DNA of 64,000 bases from a virus. Taxonomy: Duplodnaviria > Heunggongvirae > Uroviricota > Caudoviricetes. This document shows positions 6,845-52,246 of this stretch, in pieces. The stretch is from the IMG/VR virus record IMGVR_UViG_2671180890_000004, one strand, 5' to 3'. Numbering within the stretch: position 1 is the first letter of the stretch; every line of letters starts with the position of its first letter. The notes beneath the pieces are model-generated. The model saw nothing but the letters and a program-made list of their open reading frames with translations. It made no database searches and had not been told where the DNA came from. The position numbers were made by a program, and so were the translations under genes.

Positions 6845-8013
6845 TTTTTCTTCTCTCTTATTACTGTGGACGTGCTGCCGTCCGGTTTATAGATGGTCAG
6901 CATCCGGGTTTTGCCGATTTTTTTACCTTTCTTCGCCTTGCCCTGTGTGATCGGCCCCCGTGCCACTTCCAGCTCTGTGGTGTAGCCGCTGTTACGGTCA
7001 AACGCATGGCGGGCAGTGGTTATGAGCCATGGCCCGGATAACTGCCCAAAACCCACCAGTTCAATTTTGTTGCCTGCTGTCAGTTGAGGTGTTCCCGTCA
7101 GCGTCAGGGAGCCGTTCTGCTGGTATTCGTTATGTCTGGCCAGTGCTGAATCCGCTTTAATCCGGGCACTGTCCGGGTCGCTGACGCGGCTGTTAACTTT
7201 AAGTGAGTCAGCGCTGGTAACCTTACCACCTTTGAGCTTTTTGTCGCTTTCACGGGTACCACCATCAGCTTCGTAGACGATCAGTTTTTTACTGCTGCTT
7301 TTCTGGTGTTTTACCTTTGCAGATTTATAGACCCGGTTGATGGTGTCACGCAGGGAAAAGCGGGCCACATCCTGCGGTTTTAACTGCCTGACCGGCTCCT
7401 GACTGCGCAGTGTGGCCAGATGAGAAAAAATCAGCTGGTCACTGACCACTTTCACTGCATAACCATACTCGCTGGCCAGCCGGCGCAGAAAACCCACGTC
7501 GGTTTCAGCATACTGGGTCACCCGGTCGATTCTGATGGACTCAATGCTGCCCACCAGTTTCAGCCGGTGCTTTCTGGCAATCCGCCCCGCAACAGCTGCC
7601 AGCGTGGTGTTCTCAAAACCACGACTGGTTTTAGTCCGCAGGGCACTGTTAACCGAGGTGGCCACCCCACGGATAGAAACAACGGAAGCGGGCGAACTCA
7701 CTTCGATCTCGTCTATAGAGAACGTACCGCAGGACAGCAGCTTCTCGTCCTGATAGCCCATTTTCAGCGTCAGCGTGTCACCCTTGCCCGGATACCACTT
7801 ATCCAGCCAGCGGCCATCGGTGTCGTCCAGCTCCACCTCAATGGTATCGGACTCATTTTTGATGTTATCGCTCCAGGTCACACGGGTGACATAAGGCGCG
7901 ATATCAGAGGTGATGTTTTTCTGCAGATACCACAGAGTGAACACCGGTGTCAGCACATCGCTGACGCCGGTTAACGCTGATGTGACTTGCGCAGTGCTGT
8001 TTATCTCAGCCAT
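6841..8013 (-). CDS. Tail protein D (late control D family)
   Basis: 390 aa, size and position downstream of X/U-like genes. Confidence 0.7.
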   Translation of the reverse strand: MAEINSTAQVTSALTGVSDVLTPVFTLWYLQKNITSDIAPYVTRVTWSDNIKNESDTIEVELDDTDGRWLDKWYPGKGDTLTLKMGYQDEKLLSCGTFSIDEIEVSSPASVVSIRGVATSVNSALRTKTSRGFENTTLAAVAGRIARKHRLKLVGSIESIRIDRVTQYAETDVGFLRRLASEYGYAVKVVSDQLIFSHLATLRSQEPVRQLKPQDVARFSLRDTINRVYKSAKVKHQKSSSKKLIVYEADGGTRESDKKLKGGKVTSADSLKVNSRVSDPDSARIKADSALARHNEYQQNGSLTLTGTPQLTAGNKIELVGFGQLSGPWLITTARHAFDRNSGYTTELEVARGPITQGKAKKGKKIGKTRMLTIYKPDGSTSTVIREKKK

Positions 8014-8216
8014 GGGGCAATATCCTCTTCTGTACGGGCTTCTTCAGCCTCAATCACCGGGATCAGTAACAACAGCCCGGAGGGCAGCACCGGCGTGATG
8101 GCCACGTGCGGATTGGCGGCAATAATCCGGGGATAGCCCAGCGGGTCACCGTAGTACTGCCATGCCAGCGAATCCCAGCGCTCTCCGTCACGGGTAACAT
8201 GTTCAAGAAACATCAC
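8001..8216 (-). CDS. Tail protein X-like
   Basis: 71 aa small protein between U-like and D-like genes. Confidence 0.55.
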   Translation of the reverse strand: MMFLEHVTRDGERWDSLAWQYYGDPLGYPRIIAANPHVAITPVLPSGLLLLIPVIEAEEARTEEDIAPWLR

Positions 8217-9097
8217 ACACTCCTCGTCAGTATTCTGGCGGCCATTGCACTTAATCCCGGAGACATGCGGTTGAATGCTGTTCCGACGGCGTTAAGCTGC
8301 CCGGAAACGGTATCCAGAGCACCTGCAATATTTCTTTTGTCCACACCACTCAGCGCAGACTGTGCCTGCTGTACATACGTGGCTGCTTCGCTGGCTGTTC
8401 TGGCCAGACTGATGGCATCGGGCATGGATTCAGAGAGTGCGTTAAACGCCGGAACACTTTTCCCCAGAGCCCCGGAGATATTACCCAGTCCGCTCATCAG
8501 CCCCGGCACACGGGTCAGTGCGACAACGGGGTTATCCTTCATTTTCTGTGTCACCCGAACGGCGCTGATAGTGGTCTGGAGTACAGACTGCGCCTGTTTC
8601 GCATAGTTGACGCCGTTGCGGATGAACTGCGCCACCCCGGAAGGTGAAGGAATGGCACCGGAGACCGCCCCGACACCCGGGAGCTTCGTGCGTATTGCCG
8701 GTGGTTGCAGAGGATTTTTCGGGTCACCGGTGTATTCCCGGAGAGACACGGTGGCACTGACAGCCAGCACGTTGCCGGTACTGTCAGTCTGCTCGCTGGT
8801 TGCAGTCACATCGGTAATCACGAACCAGCCGCGATAGTCACCGTTGCCGAAGACCAGCGCCAGTGCCTGATGGGCTTTCATGGCTGTTCGCAGTCTCGCC
8901 AGCTCCACATCGGGTACACAATAATGCTGATGGAAAACCAGAGTTATCTGGATTTCGTCCAGCCTGTCGCCGACGAACTGCAGGCCAGGCTTACCCCCGA
9001 TGCGGGCATGCTCCGCATAATCGACGCCGAACGTGGCCTCGAAGCCGTCCCAGTAGGTAATCAGCTCAAACTCAATATCACCCAGTACGGCAAACAT
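8213..9097 (-). CDS. Tail protein (gpU-like N-terminal region with C-terminal extension)
   Basis: 294 aa immediately downstream of tape measure gene, overlapping stop/start. Confidence 0.5.
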   Translation of the reverse strand: MFAVLGDIEFELITYWDGFEATFGVDYAEHARIGGKPGLQFVGDRLDEIQITLVFHQHYCVPDVELARLRTAMKAHQALALVFGNGDYRGWFVITDVTATSEQTDSTGNVLAVSATVSLREYTGDPKNPLQPPAIRTKLPGVGAVSGAIPSPSGVAQFIRNGVNYAKQAQSVLQTTISAVRVTQKMKDNPVVALTRVPGLMSGLGNISGALGKSVPAFNALSESMPDAISLARTASEAATYVQQAQSALSGVDKRNIAGALDTVSGQLNAVGTAFNRMSPGLSAMAARILTRSV

Positions 9098-12000
9098 CAG
9101 CGGTACTCCTTACGTTGTTTCTGAGCCAGCAGACGCTCCAGCATTTTTTCCAGCTCATGCAGACTCATATTCAGGGCACCAGTCAGTCCTGCAGGCGCTG
9201 TGGTTTCCCTGCCATTGAGGAAAAACTGAGGATTAAAGCTGACCTGGATACCACCAGACGTTCCACCGCCGGTTGCAGCTGCACCACGGCCTGAATATCC
9301 GGCAGCCAGGATTTCAGGCGAGGGGATACGGGGAACATCCGGTGTCATCTCATTTGCCAGACGTTGCCCTGGTAAAATCGATGCCCGGGTGGAGAGCGGA
9401 ATAACGGGCATGGAAGACAAACTATTGATTACGGCTCCGATCGCATTTTTAGCAGACGACATAAACCCATTGATATCGGGCAACGGCATACTGAAGCGAA
9501 CACCTGAAGTGTTATCCCGTATTTCTGGCCCCTGAATGCTCACGGGCATTCTGGGGAGCAGTTCACTGGCCATTCGCTGCCCGGCCAGAGCTGCAAGCGG
9601 AGTGGTCCGCTGCAGGCCAATGGCGGCCCCCTGCGCGATATTGTCACCAAAGCCCATAAACACGCGGCTCGGCGAATGAATGCCCAGCTTTTCGCTGAAC
9701 CAGCCACTGATGCTGTCACCCATTCCGGTTACACTGGATTTGAGCGACTCCCATTTGTTTTTGATACCGTTAATCAGACCGTCGACAAGATGGCCACCGA
9801 AGTCGGTGAACTTTGCCGGCAGATCAACACCAAGATATTTCAGCGCAGCTGCAAAGGCTTTATAGAGCAGACCTGCCGGCGACCAGTTAATCAGCAGCTT
9901 ACCAGTTCCCGCGATACCGCCGTTAAAGGCTTCCTGAATGTCAGCCCAGCACTGTTTAAACCAGCTACTGATGCTGTCACCCATTCCGGTTACACTGGAT
10001 TTGAGCGACCCCCATTTGTTTTTGATACCGTTAATCAGACCGTCGATAAGATGGCCACCGAAGTCGGTGAACTTTGCCGGCAGAGCAACGCCGAAATATT
10101 TCAGCGCAGCCGCAAAGGCTTTATAGAGCAGGCCTGCCGGCGACCAGTTAATCAGCAACTTACCAATTCCCACAATGCCGCCGTTAAAGGCTTCCTGAAT
10201 GTCAGCCCAGCGCTGTTTAAACCAGCTACTGATGCTGTCACCCATTCCGGTTACACTGGATTTGAGCGACCCCCATTTGCTTTTGATACCGTTAATCAGA
10301 CCGTCGATAAGATGGCCACCGAAGTCGGTGAACTTTGCCGGCAGAGCAACGCCGAAATATTTCAGCGCAGCCGCAAAGGCTTTATAGAGCAGGCCTGCCG
10401 GCGACCAGTTAATCAGCAACTTACCAATTCCCACAATGCCGCCGTTAAAGGCTTCCTGAATGTCAGCCCAGCGCTGTTTAAACCAACCACTGACAGCCCC
10501 CCAGTTGCGGTAGATAAGGTAAGCTGCTGTCGCGACAGCGGTGATAACGAGACCGATGGGATTCATCATCAGCGCTCGCCCAATCCAGAGAACGGCACGT
10601 GCAGCGCTCATAAAACCGCGAACGAGGCTGCCCGCCAGAACTTTGCTGAGTTTCAGTCCTCCGCTGGTCAGTCGGCTGAATCCAGTGACAAGCCAGCGTA
10701 ATTTGCCACCTTCTCCGAGTGCGGTAGTCAGTCGATGCCAGTTGGTCCGGAGTAAAACAGTAGTTTTCCAGACGTTCACAAAGGGGGAAATAAGGAGATT
10801 CAGCCCCAGTTTGAGACCAATAGTCGCTATCTTAATCGCAAGGAGCGCACTGATGAGCTTAAAAGCCCCACTGACAAATTGCGGGTGAGTCGCTACCCAG
10901 TGTTTTGTCCCCTGAATGAGTGGGAGCAGTTCCTGAGTCAGAGAAATAAAAGATGGAGCTAATTGATCGCCCAGCGTAATTGCCAGATCGCGACTGCTGA
11001 CCATAAGTGTTTTAGTGGCTTCAAGGGGAGATTTCAGCCGCTGATCATAAGCACTGGCAAGCAAATCGTTATCCGCAGCCCTGAGAGCACCGGCACGGAT
11101 CTCTCGATATCTGTCCATGTTGGCCAGCATCGGGCGGATAAATGCCATGACCTGCATATCCGCGAACATATCGCCCAGACCAAAGTTTTTCGCCAGAGCC
11201 TGAAGTGCCTCATCTCTTGCCGTATCATTCTTTATTTTCATGGCTGATTTGAAGCCGGCCAGCGCTTCGGGGCTTTTGGCATTGAGGTAACGTTCTATAA
11301 CACTCAACATCCCTTCAATCGGAGAGATCCCCGCAGCTTTATAACTCGCAATAGATCCCTGCAAATCAATACCCAGATCAGCAAACTGTTTCTGAGTATC
11401 GCGGGCAAAAATTTTGGTAAGAAAGTTTTTAAAATTATTGGCTGCTTCGTCGGTGGAACCTGCACCGATTTTTGCTATCTGGAGACTGGCCCCGATTTCA
11501 GCAACAGCCTCTTTTCCACTGGCAAGACCCGCCATCATTGGGGCCAGGGACTGCATCCACTTGACCTGATCCGGGATTTCAAATGACCCCTGGTCACCGG
11601 CATAAGCCATAATATTCTGAACGGCACCAAAATCTCTGGCCGCACCTTTCAGGGAGTTTTGCCAGACTGCGGCCACTTTTGCCCAGTCCTGAGCAGACGT
11701 GCGTGTTGCCGTTGCCGCGCGGGCAATATCCGGCATCAGAAAACCGATATCTGACACATTATCAATATTGTCGCTGATGAGTGAACCCACCGCCTCCTGC
11801 AGCTCATCCTGATACTGATTGTATTTAAGCGCCCAGCCTTTTATCTGTCCGGCAAGTGCATCCCGCGTTTTATTGTCATATTTTGCGGTGATCGACATAT
11901 CAATCATTTTGTCCTGAAAAGACATGGACTGCTGAACGGCAGGGGAAACCGTATGATAAACAGTCTGTGCCATGCCATACGCTTCAATCCCCTGACCATA

Positions 12001-12309
12001 CAGCGCCATGCGGTTAGCTTTCAGCGCATCACTGGTAGCGGATGCCGCTGACAGACGGCGCTGCTGGCGCTCAATTTGCTCCATGGTGCGGCTTACCCGC
12101 AGCAGCTCGCTGTTGAGATGCTGCATCCGGGAAGAACCCAGTTGACCATAACGTTCTGTTGCACGGGTTAAAGCGTTCTGACGTTCCTGCAGGCGGCGTG
12201 AGGTATCGCTCAGGGAATCAAGCGCACGGCGGGTACCGCTCATTGCAGAACGGAATGTGCTGCCAATCATCCCGCCGATAACAACGCCGACTGAAAACTG
12301 TCCCGACAT
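9097..12309 (-). CDS. Tail tape measure protein
   Basis: 1070 aa, coiled-coil rich, internal tandem 87-aa repeats, follows chaperone pair. Confidence 0.9.
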   Translation of the reverse strand: MSGQFSVGVVIGGMIGSTFRSAMSGTRRALDSLSDTSRRLQERQNALTRATERYGQLGSSRMQHLNSELLRVSRTMEQIERQQRRLSAASATSDALKANRMALYGQGIEAYGMAQTVYHTVSPAVQQSMSFQDKMIDMSITAKYDNKTRDALAGQIKGWALKYNQYQDELQEAVGSLISDNIDNVSDIGFLMPDIARAATATRTSAQDWAKVAAVWQNSLKGAARDFGAVQNIMAYAGDQGSFEIPDQVKWMQSLAPMMAGLASGKEAVAEIGASLQIAKIGAGSTDEAANNFKNFLTKIFARDTQKQFADLGIDLQGSIASYKAAGISPIEGMLSVIERYLNAKSPEALAGFKSAMKIKNDTARDEALQALAKNFGLGDMFADMQVMAFIRPMLANMDRYREIRAGALRAADNDLLASAYDQRLKSPLEATKTLMVSSRDLAITLGDQLAPSFISLTQELLPLIQGTKHWVATHPQFVSGAFKLISALLAIKIATIGLKLGLNLLISPFVNVWKTTVLLRTNWHRLTTALGEGGKLRWLVTGFSRLTSGGLKLSKVLAGSLVRGFMSAARAVLWIGRALMMNPIGLVITAVATAAYLIYRNWGAVSGWFKQRWADIQEAFNGGIVGIGKLLINWSPAGLLYKAFAAALKYFGVALPAKFTDFGGHLIDGLINGIKSKWGSLKSSVTGMGDSISSWFKQRWADIQEAFNGGIVGIGKLLINWSPAGLLYKAFAAALKYFGVALPAKFTDFGGHLIDGLINGIKNKWGSLKSSVTGMGDSISSWFKQCWADIQEAFNGGIAGTGKLLINWSPAGLLYKAFAAALKYLGVDLPAKFTDFGGHLVDGLINGIKNKWESLKSSVTGMGDSISGWFSEKLGIHSPSRVFMGFGDNIAQGAAIGLQRTTPLAALAGQRMASELLPRMPVSIQGPEIRDNTSGVRFSMPLPDINGFMSSAKNAIGAVINSLSSMPVIPLSTRASILPGQRLANEMTPDVPRIPSPEILAAGYSGRGAAATGGGTSGGIQVSFNPQFFLNGRETTAPAGLTGALNMSLHELEKMLERLLAQKQRKEYR
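9690..10480 (-). repeat. Three tandem 261-bp coding repeats inside tape measure gene
   Basis: Protein repeats SSWFKQRWADIQEAFNGGIVGIGKLLINWSPAGLLYKAFAAALKYFGVALPAKFTDFGGHLIDGLINGIK three times; antisense ORFs recur at 261-bp spacing (9938, 10199). Confidence 0.8.
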
Positions 12310-12384
12310 AGTGGTTAACCTCCGGGGAAGGTGAAAAGACGTGAGGGGATAACGCAGAACAGCCGCTACTGGCGGCTGTCTGTA

Positions 12385-12642
12385 CTATGATTTGTCGCCG
12401 TACTCGCTTTTGATTTGCTCTTCAGCCTGCTCCAGCCACATCTCCAGATCGTCAGTATCGAGGGCATCAATCTCCCCCGGCTGAAACCGGAACCATCTCG
12501 CCAGCAGCCCCTGCGCCTGCGTCAGCGCCCTGGTTGCTCTCACCCATCCCCGTGATGAGCTGAAATCGTTTCTGTAACTGCAGGTAATCAGCCAGATCCA
12601 TATTGTCGAGATCTTCCGGGAGAAGACCAGTACTGCGGGCAA
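12385..12642 (-). CDS. Alternative-frame extension of tail assembly chaperone (GT/E+E'-like frameshift product)
   Basis: ORF overlaps the 3' part of the chaperone gene in a different frame and ends just before the tape measure gene. Confidence 0.55.
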   Translation of the reverse strand: MPAVLVFSRKISTIWIWLITCSYRNDFSSSRGWVRATRALTQAQGLLARWFRFQPGEIDALDTDDLEMWLEQAEEQIKSEYGDKS

Positions 12643-12802
12643 TCAGCGGTTCGTCCCAGTCTGCCGGGTTTTTGCTGATTTTGCGCACCTGCTTCAGGTC
12701 TTTTACCGTCAGGCGTTTCAGTTCAACCAGCTCAATTCTGGTGCCTGCAGCAGTGGTGAAGGGATAAGACAATTTAAAAGTATCGGATGGGGTCTGTGAC
12801 AT
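12467..12802 (-). CDS. Tail assembly chaperone (G/E-like)
   Basis: 111 aa directly upstream of tape measure gene with an overlapping alternative-frame ORF. Confidence 0.7.
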   Translation of the reverse strand: MSQTPSDTFKLSYPFTTAAGTRIELVELKRLTVKDLKQVRKISKNPADWDEPLIARSTGLLPEDLDNMDLADYLQLQKRFQLITGMGESNQGADAGAGAAGEMVPVSAGGD

Positions 12803-12899
12803 GATTGTGCTCCTGTGTAAGTTCAGGGCAGTATGTCGGGAGAAGCGCGTGACGGATATTAAAGGAGATTAAGAAGAAGGGGCCGGAGCCCCTGTGATG

Positions 12900-13181
12900 T
12901 CAGCAAGTGCGAAACCCCTTGCAGTTACGCAGGAAAGCGATGAGAAGCGTCTTTCCCTCAGATTTGCCGATGCCGGAGAACCAGTGGTCGGGAGGCTCCC
13001 ATGCTTCAATCAAATCCGCCAGTTTGCGGGCCTTTGAACGTGTGCAGTCAATCGGGTCATTGGTTTTACGGGTATTAAAAAGGGTTTCCACCCCCGGAAT
13101 ATCAAGGAGGGTAAACCACGTACCATTTGACATGCCCAGTGCCGCACATCGTCCTCCTTTATCCGTCAGTTCAACACTCAC
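12900..13181 (-). CDS. Hypothetical 93-aa protein between tail tube and chaperone genes
   Basis: Start overlaps tail tube stop; no recognisable motif. Confidence 0.35.
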   Translation of the reverse strand: MSVELTDKGGRCAALGMSNGTWFTLLDIPGVETLFNTRKTNDPIDCTRSKARKLADLIEAWEPPDHWFSGIGKSEGKTLLIAFLRNCKGFRTC

Positions 13182-13183
13182 CG

Positions 13184-13705
13184 TCAGCCCCCGATATTGA
13201 TACGGTAGTCAGTCAGTTGATCAACACCGCCGACCCGGAAGATGTTGGCCAGATAGTCCAGTTGCAGCAGCTCTTCACCATCCAGTACCTGTCTGATATA
13301 CGTGCAGGTGAAGCTACTGGAGAACTCGGCGTTCTCGTGCTGTTTGAACGTCCCCAGCGGGTTCTTCTTGAACATAATCGTCAGGAAGGTGACCAGCGGG
13401 ATTTCGTCAATCAGCCCCTGCGAGCTGTAGCGCTGGACGCTGGAACGACACTGCAGTGCCAGCGACCTGTACGGGTTCGCGGCAGACAGCATCGCATCGC
13501 GGTAAAAGCTGTTCCATTTGATTTCGCCTTCCAGCTTGTCAAAACCAGCCGGGAGTTCCACCTTACCCACCATCCCCAGCGCCTTGTGTTCCTGCATAAT
13601 CATGGAGACATCGGGGAGTTTGACTTCCTCAGCCCGTCCCAGCAGGTTAGTACCATCCAGATAGATGTTGGCATTCGTGATGCGGTTTATCTCAATCTTT
13701 GACAT
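13184..13705 (-). CDS. Tail tube protein
   Basis: 173 aa immediately downstream of sheath gene. Confidence 0.8.
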   Translation of the reverse strand: MSKIEINRITNANIYLDGTNLLGRAEEVKLPDVSMIMQEHKALGMVGKVELPAGFDKLEGEIKWNSFYRDAMLSAANPYRSLALQCRSSVQRYSSQGLIDEIPLVTFLTIMFKKNPLGTFKQHENAEFSSSFTCTYIRQVLDGEELLQLDYLANIFRVGGVDQLTDYRINIGG

Positions 13706-44581: not shown

Positions 44582-44614
44582 TGGTGGAGCTGGCGGGAGT
44601 TGAACCCGTGTCCA
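44582..44614 (-). other. tmRNA (ssrA) 3'-end fragment, prophage attachment-site repeat
   Basis: Minus strand reads GGACACGGGTTCAACTCCCGCCAGCTCCACCA, matching the tmRNA 3' terminus with one mismatch; flanks do not match ssrA. Confidence 0.7.
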
Positions 44615-45039
44615 TAGTTATGTAATTCATTGAATTTAAATAGCCAAATATTGTTGATTTTACACGCGGCTCTTTTGCGGAACTTTTTCTGTCCTGTTAC
44701 TGTCTTACTATTTATTTTAAAATAGTTTCATTTGGAATTAATGGTTTGTGGTTGCAGTTTCGGAGATAGATAGCATTTTTTGCTAAAAAATATTTTTATA
44801 AAAAATGTGTGTAAAAATGATGTTATGCACAGATTTATACACAGAGGCTTTGTAATAAACCAGATTATTTTGGATAAGTTTGTTTTTTTGTGATTTGTCA
44901 ACAATATTATTGACTCTTGTTACTAAAGTGAGTGTTTTCTAAGGTGGCCAGAAGTTGTCCCTTCATGTAATCTTATTAGCCATAAAGAACAAAAAATAAT
45001 TCAACATCATTACCAACTATTTGTAAGATAAGGTTTTTA

Positions 45040-45855
45040 ATGTTGCAGCCAGCAAAAAAAGCATCAGTTATTAGCGCGCGGCTAACTAAATACCTCAAAG
45101 ATGGAGTGAGGATTGATGACTTTAGCTTTAGAAGGATGTTACGTGAGATTGAAGCACTTAGAGATCCTGTCTCTGAGGACTATCTTTTAGCGTTGGTCTA
45201 TGGTGCACATGGTCAAGTGAATGAGGCGATAGGCTTCTTTGAGCGTTCCTTGCAGGTATGCCATAATGAGGTTGTTGCAAAGAATTTTCTTGTTTTCTTG
45301 TCAGATTACGGTACGTTGAAGAAAAGCTTTGAAACAAGCATTAAGCTTGCTGAAAGCTTCATATCCCCGTTTATTTATCTTCAAGCTTATGAAAACTCCC
45401 TCTTTATGGGGAAGATGGCGTTGGCGGAGAAGTATTTCCAGTCATACTCTAAATTGTTCGGAGATAAGGAGCCTGAAAAAATGGACAACCATCTTGATGA
45501 AGTTGTTTCCCAGGTCGAATCCTTTAAGCAACGTGCCGATCTTTCTGGTTTAGAATATGAACTTATTTTCAATAATGTAGCCAATGTCATGGATTCTCAG
45601 AAGGTTCATCTTTCGGGAATGCGTTTTTATAATATTTCGGAAGAGAAAGTGAATGCGATTGTATTCATGACAAAGTCTTCTGATGCTGAACAAATCGCTG
45701 ATATGAATATTGAGCTTGCTTTTTCAATGGCTGAGCACGATTGTTTAGTCGGTAAAGATTTTGCTGTTTGGTTTGAATGTAAAGACACACATATTGAGCA
45801 GAATGCTATCTCCGAATTAGGTCTGATTACCCGGAGGGTTGCACATGCCGGTTAA
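45040..45855 (+). CDS. Hypothetical 271-aa protein, first gene of AT-rich cargo pair
   Basis: ORF after a long AT-rich promoter-like region between att and int; no motif recognised. Confidence 0.45.
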   Translation: MLQPAKKASVISARLTKYLKDGVRIDDFSFRRMLREIEALRDPVSEDYLLALVYGAHGQVNEAIGFFERSLQVCHNEVVAKNFLVFLSDYGTLKKSFETSIKLAESFISPFIYLQAYENSLFMGKMALAEKYFQSYSKLFGDKEPEKMDNHLDEVVSQVESFKQRADLSGLEYELIFNNVANVMDSQKVHLSGMRFYNISEEKVNAIVFMTKSSDAEQIADMNIELAFSMAEHDCLVGKDFAVWFECKDTHIEQNAISELGLITRRVAHAG

Positions 45856-46228
45856 TAGTCAAGATTTTCTCGGTTTTGCAAAAGACTGTCATCAACGTAA
45901 TGACGAAATCGGCTATCGAAATGCTATAGCAAGATCCTACTATGGCGCTTACCATCATGTCTTGCCTTGTATGGTAAACGGGCCGAAAGACAGTCATCAG
46001 GGGCTAATCAATTATTTGCAGGGCGATGCTTCAAGAGGAAGTGAAGTATATGAAGCTAGATATCTAAAAGGGATTAGTTTTATCCTGAGTCAACTTAAAG
46101 CTCAGAGGATTGTTGCAGACTATCGACTTGATCAATCGGTCACTTCTAAACAGTCTGAAGTTGCGATTCTAACAACTGAGAGGCTCTTTGCTAAGTGTAC
46201 GGAAATGCTTAAATCGAGAGCCTCCTAA
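45839..46228 (+). CDS. Hypothetical 129-aa protein with R-x6-H motif (possible HEPN-like)
   Basis: Start overlaps upstream stop by about 17 nt; RSYYGAYHH segment. Confidence 0.45.
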   Translation: MHMPVNSQDFLGFAKDCHQRNDEIGYRNAIARSYYGAYHHVLPCMVNGPKDSHQGLINYLQGDASRGSEVYEARYLKGISFILSQLKAQRIVADYRLDQSVTSKQSEVAILTTERLFAKCTEMLKSRAS

Positions 46229-46231
46229 TTG

Positions 46232-46258
46232 ATAAAGCCACTTAAGTGGCTTTTTTTG
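46232..46258. terminator. Hairpin terminator between cargo pair and integrase
   Basis: AAAGCCACTTAAGTGGCTTTTTTT. Confidence 0.6.
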
Positions 46259-47414
46259 TGATATTGCTGGTCGTATTACCGTCATATTCCTTTAAATATG
46301 AACCATAATGACGAAATAACATTTCCGGCCCTTTATGCCCCATTTGAGCTGCAAGCCAAAACAGGTTTGCTCCCCGGCTGATATGGCGGGTGGCGAATGT
46401 ATGCCTAGTTTGATATGGATTTCTGTAACGAATACCTGCTTTTCGCAATGTTGGCACCCATGCTTTTTTCCTGATTGCATCAGCACTTGCCCAGGGCTTA
46501 TTGGTCTTTGGATCTTCAAAGACAGTAGCATCCTTCATGAATGTAAATGGCTTCTGATTTATCAGCGCCAACATTGCTTCTTCAGTCAGTTCAACTTTAC
46601 GGGTACCGGCTTTTGTCTTTGTCCCTTTGATAACACCGACAACACTTGCGCTCTGGACATGGGCAGTTTTTCCAACAAAGTCGATATCACGCCATCGAAG
46701 GGCACATAATTCAGAACTACGCAGGCCTGTATGTATAGCGAACCGGAACAGATTTTCCCATTGTTTTTTTCCGGCTGCTGCTAGTAATGCATCAACTTCT
46801 GCTGGTGATAGCGGATCAACCACGTAGCTGCTTTCTGCTTCTGACTTATCACTTTGGTAGCGCGAAGCAGTTACCAACGATACGGGGTTAATTTGAAGTA
46901 CCCCATCGGTTACGGCTTCATCAAGTGCTGACCGCAGGAAAGATAACTGGTTGCGAATTGTTTTTAAGGTCGTTTTCTGGCTTTGAATCCACGCTTTCAG
47001 GATTGCTGGTGTTAATTCACTTGCAGGGCAAATGTGGAGTGAGGCTAACGCACTACGGCATTTTTTATAACCACCAATCGTAGAGGGTGAAAGTTTTCTT
47101 GTTTCGCAGATTTCAAGATATTCGTCCAGGTACATCTTTACCGTTTTGCCTGCAGCAGCATTACCAAAAATTTTCAAACGAGCAGAACGGGGAAAATATT
47201 CTGCATAAATGAATGTTCCCCTTTCGATCTTATTATGGATTTCGCCGAGTGTACGCTCGGCGTATTTAATGTTCTTTGGTGTTACTTCCAGATTGGAAAG
47301 CGGCTCACGACATCTAACTCCTTTGTAGGTGAAAGTTATATTGATCGTTTCTCCCTGGCGGTGTTTCCTGATTGTTACGCCGCGCGGTAGTTTGAGCAGT
47401 TTTGTCTGGCCCAT
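46242..47414 (-). CDS. int: Tyrosine integrase
   Basis: 390 aa; C-terminal catalytic region with conserved Arg/His/Tyr pattern; adjacent to att. Confidence 0.9.
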   Translation of the reverse strand: MGQTKLLKLPRGVTIRKHRQGETINITFTYKGVRCREPLSNLEVTPKNIKYAERTLGEIHNKIERGTFIYAEYFPRSARLKIFGNAAAGKTVKMYLDEYLEICETRKLSPSTIGGYKKCRSALASLHICPASELTPAILKAWIQSQKTTLKTIRNQLSFLRSALDEAVTDGVLQINPVSLVTASRYQSDKSEAESSYVVDPLSPAEVDALLAAAGKKQWENLFRFAIHTGLRSSELCALRWRDIDFVGKTAHVQSASVVGVIKGTKTKAGTRKVELTEEAMLALINQKPFTFMKDATVFEDPKTNKPWASADAIRKKAWVPTLRKAGIRYRNPYQTRHTFATRHISRGANLFWLAAQMGHKGPEMLFRHYGSYLKEYDGNTTSNITKKAT

Positions 47415-47593
47415 TTTGCAACCTCACTAAGATCAATCCACCTCTCCTTAACGCCTTCAACCTTTAAAACCTGAACACCTTCACGCCAAACACCGCGCTG
47501 TACACGTTTGTTTATTGCTTCAGGAGTTTCGCCAGTTTCTTTGCAATAAGTTGAGATAGGAACACAATCGAGGTTCAGCATACGTTTCTCCAT
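47375..47593 (-). CDS. xis: Excisionase-like small DNA-binding protein
   Basis: About 70 aa immediately upstream of int; start uncertain. Confidence 0.55.
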   Translation of the reverse strand: MEKRMLNLDCVPISTYCKETGETPEAINKRVQRGVWREGVQVLKVEGVKERWIDLSEVAKWARQNCSNYRAA

Positions 47594-47622
47594 TATCCCG
47601 TCTGCACACGGGAGCAACATTA

Positions 47623-48513
47623 TTAACGAATAGTGTCGTTACTTTGAAGTACAGCAAATGCCATTAATACTTCTAAAGTATATCTTCTATAAAATTTAAC
47701 AAAACCAACATAGAAAACATAGACGAAGAAAAAGCTAAGCATTATTGAAAGTAAACTATAAAGATAATCACTATGAGTACATAATCGATAAATAAAGGTT
47801 GGAACTGATACCCAAAATGAAATTATAAAGATTAAACATATGTTTCTGCAAAAACCATATAATGCAACATAGTTTTGAATTTTTGTTTGATGTTGTTTTG
47901 AAAACTCATAAACATAATGATATGCCAATCTGAAGAGATCATCATCAAGTCCGTTTTTATCTTGTAATAATTGGCGATTTGTTATGAACTTTTTCTCATA
48001 ACCTTCTTTGATCATTAACCATGTTGTATTAGCTAAATGAAATGGTAGAGATTGAGAATAACATAGTTTTTGTGTTATAAAATCCCATAGTATTATTGGA
48101 CATAATACGCATTTGATTATGCGATTCTTTATTTTTGTTTTTTTATCAGCGCTTCTCTCATCGCATGATGGGCTACAAATGCTTTCTGAGGTATCTATCA
48201 ATTTTTTAAATAGATATTTGGAAGGATATCCTAATTCTTTATTCATGTATTTTTCGATAAAAAATGCTGACGTGATAGAAATAAAATGTCCAGCTATATA
48301 AGATATAATAACTATTGAAGCGTAGTTCAAAATGCCAAAGATTTGACTTTGACCTCTGAGCAATTCACTTAAGTCAATAACAATATCTAGATCGAATGTC
48401 AAACCACAGAAATACATTAATAGGATGAAAAAACCACCTGGTATTAAATATCCAAGAAAGTCATAGAATGAGAATGGATTTTGATTCATTGTTGCTCTCC
48501 AATAATTTTTCAA
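47623..48513 (-). CDS. AT-rich membrane protein (two N-terminal and two C-terminal TM helices around a soluble core)
   Basis: 296 aa, low GC, between xis and early-left genes. Confidence 0.5.
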   Translation of the reverse strand: MKNYWRATMNQNPFSFYDFLGYLIPGGFFILLMYFCGLTFDLDIVIDLSELLRGQSQIFGILNYASIVIISYIAGHFISITSAFFIEKYMNKELGYPSKYLFKKLIDTSESICSPSCDERSADKKTKIKNRIIKCVLCPIILWDFITQKLCYSQSLPFHLANTTWLMIKEGYEKKFITNRQLLQDKNGLDDDLFRLAYHYVYEFSKQHQTKIQNYVALYGFCRNICLIFIISFWVSVPTFIYRLCTHSDYLYSLLSIMLSFFFVYVFYVGFVKFYRRYTLEVLMAFAVLQSNDTIR

Positions 48514-48597
48514 TTTGTAATATAACCTATATCTATATGTTAATAAATTACTTATATGTTCTTTTATGGCAGAGTTTGAATTCGTACGTGCTGATTT

Positions 48598-49149
48598 TTA
48601 CGACTCAGTTAACTCTTTAAAGCGTTCCATAAACATCCCATAGGTATGGCCTGGCGACAGTGGAATAACTTTGAACATCTCTGTTGCCGGGATACCTTCC
48701 AGTACGGGCCAGAAAGAGCCATCATCAAGCCCGAGATCGCGGCGTTCGGTTGCCAGCATGATGAGATCGGCATATTTCACGGGCGTACTCATAACCGGGG
48801 GTAACCCGTATTTCTCACGGATTACGGCGTCTATTTTTTCTTCCATCCGTTTATAGTCAGGAAGAAGGCGTTTCAGTGGCGCCGGGATGTCCTGGCAATA
48901 CGCTTCTGTTGCATCATGCATTAACGCTTCAAAAGCAAATTCCTGCGGTACCAGTTGGCTGCAAAGCACCGCATGTTGGGCGACGCTGTAGAAATGTGAA
49001 AGATGTCCTGCAAAGCGACAGATATTTGAAAGAGAAACCGCGATATCGTTAATAACGATGTCGTCTTTATTTATCCTGTCATAATAAAAATGCTTCCCGG
49101 AAAAAGTTTTAATAAATGACATTTTGTTCTCCACGTATATGCGCTGCAC
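48598..49149 (-). CDS. HD-domain phosphohydrolase (YfbR-like 5'-deoxynucleotidase type)
   Basis: H...HD motif in GHLSHFYSVAQHAVLCSQL...ALMHDATEAY. Confidence 0.7.
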   Translation of the reverse strand: MQRIYVENKMSFIKTFSGKHFYYDRINKDDIVINDIAVSLSNICRFAGHLSHFYSVAQHAVLCSQLVPQEFAFEALMHDATEAYCQDIPAPLKRLLPDYKRMEEKIDAVIREKYGLPPVMSTPVKYADLIMLATERRDLGLDDGSFWPVLEGIPATEMFKVIPLSPGHTYGMFMERFKELTES

Positions 49150-49249
49150 CGCGCTGAATTCTGGTAAAAGAAAGCCCTCACCATCCGGCGATTATTGAGT
49201 CAATTACGTTTCCATAAATGCCCCCGCAGGGGCATTTGCAGTAATGAAA

Positions 49250-50074
49250 TCAGGCGGTAAAAGTACCAATAAAGGTTTCTACTTTGCTGTCCTTGAATTT
49301 CTCAACAAGCAGATCACGAAATTCGTTAGCCATTTCTTCCTGCACTGCTTCCAGCTGAATAATGCGCAGAACCAGTACAGGACGATCGCCAGTGATAATG
49401 CTGAGGCGTAATTTAAACGGACGTTCTTTCAGGCCTTCAAACGGAACGCATTTAAATTCAAATGTCACTGGCATAATATCTTTGGTCTTCGCTTCGACAG
49501 ACTCCATCAGGGAGCGTTTGCCGCTGAAGTCATTGTCTTCAAAATCAGCGGTCTGGTTTGCTTCAATCGTGATTTTACGGACTGCCGCAGCCGCTTTTGT
49601 TGCCTGAATGACATCACCATTAGCATCAAAGCCCACAAGGTAGTCGGCCCAGTCTTCAATCCATTCTGCCAGTGACTTCTGGGAGTTACGCTCGCCGTTA
49701 ACAGACAACAGAGCAGAGAACGGTGCTGTCTTTTTCAGTTTGAGAGTGGCGGTGTTATCTGCGTGACCAGGCTCATCAATAGTACCCAGGTTAAGCACAC
49801 TGACGGCACGCATATTATCGGCATCGATAAAGCAGCGGGTGCCTTCATCCGCAAGATCTTTAGAATAACGGGTAAAGTCATCGATGCTGGCAGTGGAAAG
49901 CGCACCACGGAAACGGAAGCGATTTAAATTAAATTTTTCCAGATCATGAATGCGGAAATTTTCAGGTAATGCCACTGCGTCGGCACCAATCTTACTGATA
50001 ATTTCATTAACACCCTGAGCAGAAATAAGGGCATGGATTTGATTAATTGCGGTTGCGTCTAAGTTCTGAGACAT
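49250..50074 (-). CDS. YfdQ-like early-left protein
   Basis: 274 aa, lambdoid early-left position. Confidence 0.5.
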
Positions 50075-50502: not shown

Positions 50503-50939
50503 TTTGCTGCTCCTCATCATATCGACCCTGCAAGGCCGATTAGTTTCTCCACAAAACAGAGAAGAACACCTGCGGTGGCAGCCGCCCCGGTGGATTGGGT
50601 TATGAGCCCGTCGTCCGGTGATGCTCTTCTCTGTTTTGTAAAAAGAGCGGTACCAGCCGGAAGCAAGGGTAGAAGCTGGTACCGCCAGGACTACACACAG
50701 CATAAAGTTGTGGTGCCGGGTGCCTCCCGGTGCCTGGCGAAGGTTGCACACCAGGCGGGTGGGTATCCACAGAAGGTCGACTGTCAGCCTCAACCTTAAC
50801 CCGCGTGCGCTGAGCCGCATTCACCACAACGCTAAGGATTCTCTCAGGTTGAAAATACTTAGCTGTTATGTGCCTGTCTTTTCACCACTTCAGGCTCGGT
50901 GGTATCCTTTTAAGCCCGTATACATAAAAGGAAAATCAA

Positions 50940-51571: not shown

Positions 51572-52246
51572 TTAGGCTTTGATTTTGTATCTTCTTGGTT
51601 TTCCTGAGAAAATCACTGTACCAATTATAGAGCAATTACCGTTGATCTTAATGTAAGGCTCAGGCCAGTTTGGGTTTAACGCTTTGAGATAACGCTGTGT
51701 CCCATCTTCTATCAACCTTTTGAAGGTGGTTTCACCTGTATCGTGCATCAATGCAATAACGTCGTCACCGTGGCAGGCAGGTACTTCAGGATCGACAAAA
51801 ATCATGTCTCCCGGGCGGTACTCATCAATCATTGAATCACCTATCACCCGCAAGATATAAGTCATTTCCCCACAGGGTACAGGGCAGGGATACGTTTCTG
51901 CTGTGCTCAAATCAACCTCAGAATATCCAACTTCTTTCCATGCTCCGGCCTGTACCCATGATATGACAGGGACTAATGTGATTTGTTTATTAGTGATTGA
52001 AACATCAGGTTTTTTTGTGATGTTCGTTGTCTGGTGTTCTTGATCGAGCCATCCGACAGGCAGGTCGAAACATTTTTCGATGTGTCGTGCCATGCTGTCA
52101 CCGATATTTTTAGTAGCACCATCTCCCATAAATCTGCTGGTCTGGGTTGGCTCGCGATCAATCATAGTGGCAAAGGAAGAATTCCCGCCAACACCATCTC
52201 TCAGTTTTCTGGCGTTAGACCGCCGGATGTCATGGATTGTTTTCAT
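51572..52246 (-). CDS. cI: CI-type repressor (HTH plus S24 LexA-like peptidase domain)
   Basis: 224 aa; C-terminal GDSM serine motif and Lys, N-terminal HTH; divergent from cro. Confidence 0.85.
   Translation of the reverse strand: MKTIHDIRRSNARKLRDGVGGNSSFATMIDREPTQTSRFMGDGATKNIGDSMARHIEKCFDLPVGWLDQEHQTTNITKKPDVSITNKQITLVPVISWVQAGAWKEVGYSEVDLSTAETYPCPVPCGEMTYILRVIGDSMIDEYRPGDMIFVDPEVPACHGDDVIALMHDTGETTFKRLIEDGTQRYLKALNPNWPEPYIKINGNCSIIGTVIFSGKPRRYKIKA

Follow-up and report, generated by a model that had tools for sequence, protein, structure and literature searches.

The window analysed here is a 64,000-nt stretch of viral DNA (Duplodnaviria; Heunggongvirae; Uroviricota; Caudoviricetes) from IMG/VR record IMGVR_UViG_2671180890_000004, read 5' to 3' on one strand. 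Directly upstream of the excisionase gene (xis) of a lambdoid prophage, the minus strand carries an open reading frame (ORF) at 47623..48513. An earlier note, made from the sequence alone, had picked this ORF out as an AT-rich membrane-protein gene and a candidate for superinfection exclusion or abortive infection. The protein is already catalogued as an anonymous hypothetical; what is new is its recognition as a solitary, prophage-borne relative of Csx27-like membrane proteins. We describe below the gene and its product, the family to which it belongs and the likely remote relation of that family to Csx27, and the genomic positions that tentatively suggest an anti-phage role.

The gene and its four-helix product

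Counted from a TTG codon at 48511-48513, the ORF encodes the 296 amino acids (aa) reported in the earlier note. The ORF is indeed found at that place, but the protein is probably shorter. The true start is more likely the ATG at 48489, which would yield a 288-aa protein from a coding sequence (CDS) at 47623..48489 on the minus strand. We prefer this codon because a Shine-Dalgarno sequence, GGAGAG, lies at 48495-48500, 6 nt upstream of it, because RefSeq annotates the identical CDS from the same ATG (WP_001075212.1, "hypothetical protein"), and because a full-length match to phrog_12528 (E = 8.9e-174) pairs profile positions 1-288 of 288 with residues 9-296 of the 296-aa ORF. In PHROG that family bears the label "unknown function". 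Residues are numbered here on the 288-aa protein.

Among variants 78-100% identical to the membrane protein, the ratio of nonsynonymous to synonymous substitution (dN/dS) is 0.14-0.23, which on sequence grounds marks the ORF as a real gene under purifying selection. The exact 288-aa protein is present on at least 1000 contigs; the gene occurs in 204 of 5426 complete Escherichia coli genomes, one copy in each, and E. coli CFT073 carries the same prophage with an identical protein (C_RS15230). The gene was also described as very AT-rich relative to its neighbours, and this holds: its GC content is 28.5% (21.8% at third codon positions, GC3), as against 44-46% (GC3 38-49%) for xis, int, yfdR, yfdQ and cI and 52% for the whole window. 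Across 78 loci of the family, the GC content of the gene is more than 3 points below that of its flanks in 71, by 10 points on average and by as much as 26 points in Pseudomonas, and it is never higher; GC3 is lower by 12 points on average. Family genes are compositionally foreign almost everywhere.

AT-rich DNA yields long ORFs by chance, and several hydrophobic helices would also be found in a housekeeping transporter. Either identity is nevertheless effectively excluded. The dN/dS values, the thousands of homologues with invariant motifs, the occurrence in so small a share of E. coli genomes and the foreign composition all speak against it. Homology to a housekeeping transporter, which the earlier note had named as grounds for dropping its proposal, was looked for in Pfam, NCBIfam, PDB profiles and Foldseek output, and no transporter family was matched.

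A Kyte-Doolittle hydropathy scan detects four hydrophobic segments (residues ~10-32, 48-78, 207-232 and 243-265), the inner two bordering a central region of ~130 aa (residues 79-206) that holds 22 lysines and arginines. With so many positive charges in the core, the positive-inside rule predicts an N-in/C-in topology, in which both termini and the core would be cytoplasmic. The AlphaFold2 model, made with 122 homologues (predicted local distance difference test score 82.4; predicted template-modelling score 0.83), is all-helical and agrees with the 2+2 helix topology; in it, helices 2, 3 and 4 reach well past the membrane into the cytoplasm. Hydropathy and model thus concur with the original description of two N-terminal and two C-terminal helices around a soluble core of ~130 aa. 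A sequence-profile search of PDB returned only chance matches to growth hormone, and Foldseek searches of PDB and BFVD gave nothing below E = 0.5; no solved or viral fold was matched. The parts of the gene and of the predicted protein, including its transmembrane (TM) helices, are as follows.

47623..48489, minus strand: CDS of the 288-aa four-helix inner-membrane protein; stop codon at 47623-47625
48490..48513, minus strand: 24 nt before the ATG, counted as coding in the earlier note, more likely 5' untranslated region with the GGAGAG ribosome-binding site
48394..48462, minus strand: TM helix 1, residues 10-32; near-invariant motif QNPFSxYDFLGYxxPG (residues 3-18) at the N-terminus
48256..48348, minus strand: TM helix 2, residues 48-78; conserved Y64, G67, H68, S74 and E79 at its cytoplasmic end
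47872..48255, minus strand: predicted cytoplasmic helical core, residues 79-206; conserved ends, variable middle (~96-183)
47794..47871, minus strand: TM helix 3, residues 207-232; invariant NYVALYGFxR motif at its entry
47695..47763, minus strand: TM helix 4, residues 243-265, followed by a conserved cytoplasmic tail
47659-47697, minus strand: tail motif KFYRR(Y/F)(T/S)LExxMA, residues 265-277

Where no motif had been recognised before, comparison within the family brings out several: the N-terminal motif, the pre-TM3/TM3 region and the tail are invariant or nearly so even across members only 26-37% identical to the query. Conserved in the core are the juxtamembrane Y88-P89-S90 and a block preceding TM3 (D184..R187..H191..E195..H200..K203..N206). 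All the near-invariant residues lie along the predicted membrane-cytoplasm interface (D10, H68, S74, E79, Y88-P89-S90, H191, E195, H200, K203, N206, R215, K265 and E273). When conservation is computed by compartment, cytoplasm-proximal segments reach 3.2-3.7 bits per column versus 0.5-0.9 bits for the two periplasmic loops. Since the former values far exceed the latter, the functional face of the protein is presumed to lie at the inner leaflet and in the cytoplasm.

These residues could be read in another way. Invariant His, Glu, Asp, Ser, Arg, Lys and Asn at the interface resemble an active site, and the protein might be a membrane-embedded enzyme or an envelope-modifying factor working on an inner-leaflet lipid or a lipid-linked substrate; it would then serve lysogenic conversion or fitness, and any phage resistance would be indirect or absent. 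A universal substrate would fit the conservation across phyla, and a few Bacteroidota homologues do lie inside glycosyltransferase or polysaccharide clusters. Such clusters, however, account for only 3-4 of the 78 loci; no conserved metabolic partner is seen, nor any sequence or fold similarity to known membrane enzymes. We consider an enzymatic function quite unlikely.

The family and its likely relation to Csx27

A first search returned 593 homologues, all of them unnamed. A profile search of 1.84 billion cluster representatives then gave 956 clusters (50% identity) at E <1e-3, including 206 below 1e-30. Nearly all members are full-length, at 260-340 aa. Among species-representative genomes the family spans at least 12 phyla: it is found in Gamma-, Beta- and Deltaproteobacteria, Campylobacterota, many Bacteroidota, Bacillota and Mycoplasmatota, as well as in Chloroflexota, Acidobacteriota, Gemmatimonadota, Spirochaetota and Verrucomicrobiota. 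Its hosts include diderms, monoderms and wall-less bacteria, Acholeplasmataceae among them. Every database source labels the members hypothetical. Pfam gave no match for the query and held no family covering the 122 members; a literature search found no mention of WP_001075212, WP_000193205 (a paralogue described below) or "Csx27-like".

The recurrent similarity is to Csx27. Residues 14-276 of the 296-aa ORF match the PADLOC model of this protein (PDLC01605) at positions 4-188 out of 206, with E = 1.4e-5. In a set of 131 diverse members, 94 match the same model (best E 2.2e-10), 30 match the VI-B-associated tm_4 model (PADLOC PDLC01604) and 23 match the independently built Csx27 family of NCBIfam (NF040557; best E 2e-6). 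No other NCBIfam family was matched by more than two of the 131 members, and no other PADLOC membrane effector recurs. As the many other membrane effectors in PADLOC and the thousands of membrane families in NCBIfam act here as a control against artefacts of composition, we take the family to be likely a remote homologue of Csx27, a relation read from profile scores rather than from a residue-level alignment.

The prophage protein is not Csx27 proper. It belongs to a different branch, because its scores fall far below the equivalog cut-off and because the context is not that of a CRISPR system. Operons of the wider four-helix family around Csx27 are reportedly predicted to include natural-transformation genes, multidomain proteins of the ubiquitin system or WYL-HTH proteins; near the family members examined (78 loci) there was no cas13b, CRISPR array, transformation gene, ubiquitin-like gene or WYL gene, and none of these ranked among the Pfam families most frequent at positions +-1 and +-2.

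Csx27 is a membrane accessory protein of type VI-B1 CRISPR-Cas that, when co-expressed, represses interference by Cas13b, heterologous Cas13b included. This suggests that the prophage protein might be a modulator of the same kind, damping or gating some other nucleic-acid-directed system of the cell, be it host immunity or DNA uptake, and perhaps serving the phage as an anti-defence factor. The only recognisable relative being a repressor of Cas13b would favour such a role, as would the link of the Csx27 family to DNA-uptake and natural-transformation machinery, a prediction that we have at second hand from citing papers. On the other side stand the 78 loci free of CRISPR, transformation, ubiquitin-like and WYL genes, and the remoteness of the homology. 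To our knowledge, E. coli has no type VI CRISPR system. We hold a modulator function to be very improbable.

Genomic positions of the family and the prophage in the window

To survey neighbours, 1003 ORFs from the 78 loci were clustered all-against-all, and the genes at positions +-1 and +-2 were scanned with Pfam and PADLOC. No neighbour family occurs in more than 6 of the 78 loci. The flanking positions hold integrases (4 cases), glycosyltransferases (~3), type I restriction-modification subunits (2-3) and AbiEii-type ATPases (2); the remainder are housekeeping genes. The family is shown to be large, cross-phylum and horizontally mobile, with no conserved partner gene.

In phages and prophages one position stands out. 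Five classes of the gene, 100, 85, 78, 52 and 50% identical to the query, were followed in IMG/VR contigs and assemblies; in each, the gene is succeeded by a xis-like ORF of 69-118 aa and, in most loci, by an integrase of 330-401 aa at the prophage end, with integrases and upstream genes that differ between classes. The int/xis-proximal accessory slot proposed earlier is thus confirmed, directly upstream of xis-int, and recurs in five divergent prophage classes. Across the family, the phage backbones are unrelated (lambdoid prophages, P2-like phages, Klebsiella phage P7641). The gene is shown to be prophage cargo just upstream of xis-int, and with this variety of backbones, a distinct composition and a patchy presence (the 204 E. 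coli genomes noted above) it resembles an accessory "moron" cassette.

The slot is kept in much reduced elements. A reduced Salmonella enterica prophage (loci L179-L181, 4567-12697) has a cI-type repressor, the membrane-protein gene, xis and int, with no sizeable gene called between the first two; in L179 and L180 it adjoins the phase-variation locus fljA-fljB-hin. More than 1200 assembly blocks contain the Salmonella variant. In E. coli, a widespread decayed prophage that has lost int also keeps the gene (78% variant) intact. Beside this decayed prophage, at the place of the integrase and next to host yjbM-zur-dinF-lexA, lie a SocA/Panacea-domain gene and a 139-aa gene (L086, 7450-8438), probably a toxin-antitoxin pair.

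A second position is occupied by the paralogue WP_000193205, which is 42% identical to the query and present in 289 of 5426 E. coli genomes. While the copy in the window belongs to a lambdoid prophage, this one lies in P2-like prophages between the portal gene gpQ and the replication gene gpA, an interval known as a hotspot of anti-phage systems that also holds old and tin (Rousset et al. 2022). In Table S5A of that study WP_000193205 has at least 161 entries as "hypothetical", and the systems put to the test there did not include it (Rousset et al. 2022). In the P2 class (L085, 3464-4843, E. coli 4/1-1; also L083 and L084) a 165-aa DUF4760 protein always precedes the paralogue and a ParM/StbA-type partition module flanks the pair; the DUF4760 partner is absent from every other branch of the family.

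Outside phages, one homologue (L098, 8001-8867) is set in an array of small co-directional ORFs (7080-13542) separated by attC-like repeats of ~40-100 nt that end in GGCGTTA(G/T). From these repeats, the locus appears to be a chromosomal integron cassette array with the family member as one of its cassettes. About one-third of the experimentally validated integron defence cassettes are membrane proteins, some of which interfere with genome injection. Other homologues adjoin type I restriction-modification genes. In a metagenome-assembled genome (L182, 7001-9247), the next gene after a homologue, immediately downstream and in the same orientation, encodes a 434-aa AbiH-family protein; the pair forms a small islet between beta-lactamase-family genes and the Hcp gene of a type VI secretion system.

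Around the gene in the window, host genes gabD-lhgO-glaH end near 43.9 kb, and the element that follows is a lambdoid prophage. Its minus-strand order, read from the integrase, is int, xis, the membrane-protein gene, yfdR, yfdQ, yfdP and a cI-type repressor (51572-52246). The features bearing on its setting are as follows.

44582..44629, minus strand: 48-nt tmRNA match (E 2.2e-5), with host glaH (csiD) on one side and the prophage cargo on the other
46242..47414, minus strand: tyrosine integrase gene int, with Arm-DNA-bind_2 and Phage_integrase domains
47375..47620, minus strand: excisionase gene xis (phrog_2917; RefSeq start 47581), directly downstream of the membrane-protein gene
48490..48597, minus strand: AT-rich 108-nt spacer between yfdR and the membrane-protein gene, with a possible promoter of its own
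48598..50074, minus strand: yfdR (5'-deoxynucleotidase, HD domain) and yfdQ (DUF2303), upstream on the same strand

The tmRNA match is probably a copy of the 3' end of ssrA, a putative attachment-site (att) remnant that would mark the left end of the prophage; ARAGORN found no complete tRNA or tmRNA gene in the window. Between this remnant and int lie two overlapping plus-strand cargo ORFs. The first (45040-45855; 271 aa, phrog_17809) has weak TPR matches; the second (45839-46228; 129 aa, phrog_5176) has a weak HEPN_IX match and an Rx6H-like motif, RSYYGAYH. The two look like a separate accessory module, possibly a toxin-antitoxin or defence pair, and other genomes have different genes in their position. 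In E. coli ST70 (NZ_CP102244.1; L001, 1-5775), the same prophage cargo directly adjoins a P4-like satellite, so that elements stand in tandem at one site; the satellite has an integrase of its own, psu, an ogr/delta-like gene, a cytosine methyltransferase, and a DUF262 protein together with a HEPN-like nuclease. On the other side of the membrane-protein gene, yfdR and yfdQ are regarded as context and not as members of the cassette, since the genes upstream differ in other variants. Further upstream, yfdP and the cI-type repressor are separated by a gap that holds a full-length match to the Gammaproteobacterial small RNA STnc100 (50638-50860, minus strand; 45.1 bits against a gathering score of 47, E 2.3e-7); a 226-aa ORF that is probably spurious overlaps this match.

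Signals for separate expression of the gene are faint. A strict scan found no sigma-70 promoter in the 108-nt spacer. The ~60 nt nearest the gene show conservation when the 100% and 85% variants are compared, and include a -10-like hexamer, TATATT, with a poor -35; the 50%-identity classes have a conserved TATAAT upstream of the gene. No intrinsic terminator was detected ahead of xis; the hairpin that follows the stop codon of the membrane-protein gene is no better than those of shuffled sequence, and an Rfam scan revealed no RNA element in the gene or its spacer.

This arrangement raises the possibility that the protein benefits the phage in the lytic cycle. By strand and position its gene fits the delayed-early left operon (cI ... 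yfdP yfdQ yfdR - gene - xis - int); neither side shows a terminator, and the strict scan gives no promoter. The gene might then be expressed from pL after induction or infection, and its product might act in membrane remodelling, exclusion of competitors during lytic growth, timing of lysis or host physiology, and not as a defence of the lysogen. Against an early lytic function, members of the family are often found outside phages, isolated on chromosomes or in the integron-type cassette; the gene stays intact in decayed prophages without int, is the sole gene called between cI and xis-int in the Salmonella prophages, and has its P2-type paralogue in a region of accessory exclusion genes, old and tin. 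We judge such a function distinctly improbable.

Candidate role and comparison with known systems

A protective role is suggested by the positions of the family (the P2 hotspot, the int-proximal slot, the integron-type cassette and the AbiH and restriction-modification neighbourhoods), by its foreign composition, by its retention in dead prophages and by its kinship with Csx27. Altogether, the chance that the gene has a defence-type role, against phages or other mobile elements, falls just short of even in our estimate. The best explanation, held tentatively and with a little less confidence, is that the protein works alone as an anti-phage effector in the membrane, from its cytoplasmic side; the support for this is positional and associative. 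The earlier suggestion of a superinfection-exclusion or abortive-infection gene was therefore reasonable and emerges somewhat strengthened, the backing for defence being circumstantial (P2 hotspot, integron cassette, AbiH, restriction-modification and Panacea neighbours, Csx27 match).

The cytoplasmic location of the conserved face, the variability of the periplasmic loops and the occurrence in diderm, monoderm and wall-less hosts suggest that the protein acts on something universal from the cytoplasmic side. The same three features speak against a protein that recognises one particular phage injection apparatus in the periplasm. In the mechanism that we envisage, the variable central domain would sense a cytoplasmic cue of infection; once the cue is sensed, an oligomer might form a gated pore or otherwise perturb the membrane, and the outcome would be abortive infection or growth arrest, as with RexB, Csx28 or the pore-forming integron cassettes. 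By analogy with these systems a gated-pore or abortive mechanism is conceivable, although even within a defence role we hold it to be doubtful.

Several points weigh against an anti-phage effector related to Csx27. The query itself scores only 14.9 bits (E 0.02) against NF040557, over the N-terminal 40 residues, where the curated cut-off is 65; and repression of Cas13b is the only functional datum on Csx27. Many homologues stand alone among housekeeping or core genes, outside defence islands. The gene lies in the leftward early operon of the window; since no terminator was detected before xis and the promoter-like sequence is weak, it may be silent in the lysogen and be expressed only after induction. 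Lastly, the conserved His/Glu/Asp/Ser cluster would suit the active site of an enzyme as well as the gate of a channel.

Classical superinfection exclusion, in which an inner-membrane protein such as SieA, Imm or gp15 blocks translocation of incoming phage DNA without killing the cell, has to be weighed alongside the effector model. The product is a predicted inner-membrane protein that stands alone and is carried by temperate phages in accessory slots; among integron cassettes, some of those with a membrane location hinder injection of the genome; and, according to papers that cite the work, Makarova et al. (2019) predicted that the Csx27 family forms a channel for single-stranded DNA or nucleic acid. 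However, the periplasmic loops are short and the least conserved parts of the protein, the conserved face being cytoplasmic. Known exclusion proteins are confined to one phage lineage and host family, whereas this family spans at least 12 phyla, monoderms and Acholeplasmataceae included. Moreover, it has no relation to SieB or RexB, and no clear promoter or terminator for expression in a lysogen is apparent. We therefore regard exclusion of this type as unlikely.

Should the effector model be correct and the protein protective, the family would constitute a very widespread single-gene membrane defence with a fold unrepresented among solved structures, and would for the first time give access to the biochemistry of the Csx27 superfamily, the role of which beside Cas13b has been unexplained since 2017. 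Even if it is not protective, the family is among the larger membrane-protein families that have no Pfam entry or annotation. About 9% of complete E. coli genomes carry a lambdoid or P2-type copy. Presence in the well-studied uropathogen CFT073 makes the gene experimentally accessible, and the invariant cytoplasm-facing residues are ready targets for mutants.

Several candidate identities were tried and rejected. A diiron desaturase or a CPBP protease, considered for the His/Glu pattern, was discarded for too few histidines, mismatched motifs and absence of Pfam support. Comparison by hhalign gave probabilities of 0.4% for lambda RexB and 0.5% for lambda SieB (PF14163); the one member in 122 that touches SieB, at E 0.0013, is noise. 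A MotA/PomA-like stator was set aside because the faint resemblance (probability 0.15) is not significant, the Foldseek probability was at most 0.16, neither Pfam MotA_ExbB nor PADLOC ZorA was matched, and no MotB/ZorB-like partner was present. In outline the stators (MotA/ExbB/TolQ/ZorA) are nonetheless similar. MotA, of ~290 aa, has two hairpins, TM1-TM2 and TM3-TM4, with a large cytoplasmic domain between them, and thus shares with the prophage protein both its size and its gross 2+2 topology.

SieA of P22, T4 Imm and HK97 gp15 resemble the prophage protein in being single inner-membrane proteins of phages or prophages, encoded at accessory positions and needing no partner; no sequence relation to the family came to light. 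SieA has 162-164 aa and 3 TM helices; its gene is placed between genes 16 and 9, and its occurrence is limited to P22-like prophages of Enterobacteriaceae. The protein studied here has 288 aa and four predicted helices, is encoded upstream of xis in a lambdoid prophage, belongs to a cross-phylum family and has its conserved face on the cytoplasmic side, differences by which it is set apart from SieA through description and not through direct alignment.

RexB, Csx28 and the pore-forming integron cassettes (such as BrcWGS21) are the source of the idea that a gated pore could depolarise an infected cell. RexB is, like the prophage protein, a polytopic inner-membrane protein of a lambdoid prophage, and it has four helices. 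RexB depends on RexA, and Csx28 on Cas13b, as sensor; the family protein, in contrast, has no partner, and its pore is purely hypothetical.

The comparison with Csx27 is the closest. The two have in common four predicted TM helices (from hydropathy and AlphaFold2), an alignment that covers nearly the whole Csx27 model, and a strong representation of Bacteroidota. The prophage protein differs from Csx27 in being ~80 residues longer, with a large cytoplasmic core, and its family in being solitary and travelling in many phyla on prophages, on small islands and in an integron-type cassette. A broader scheme, which we think somewhat unlikely, would make the prophage protein the founding example of a family, so far unrecognised and cross-phylum, whose members each act as a one-gene anti-phage effector in the membrane and move on prophages, integron cassettes and mini-islands, and would make Csx27 a shortened offshoot recruited from it. 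If that were true, the role of Csx27 could be studied by way of an easily handled E. coli prophage gene.

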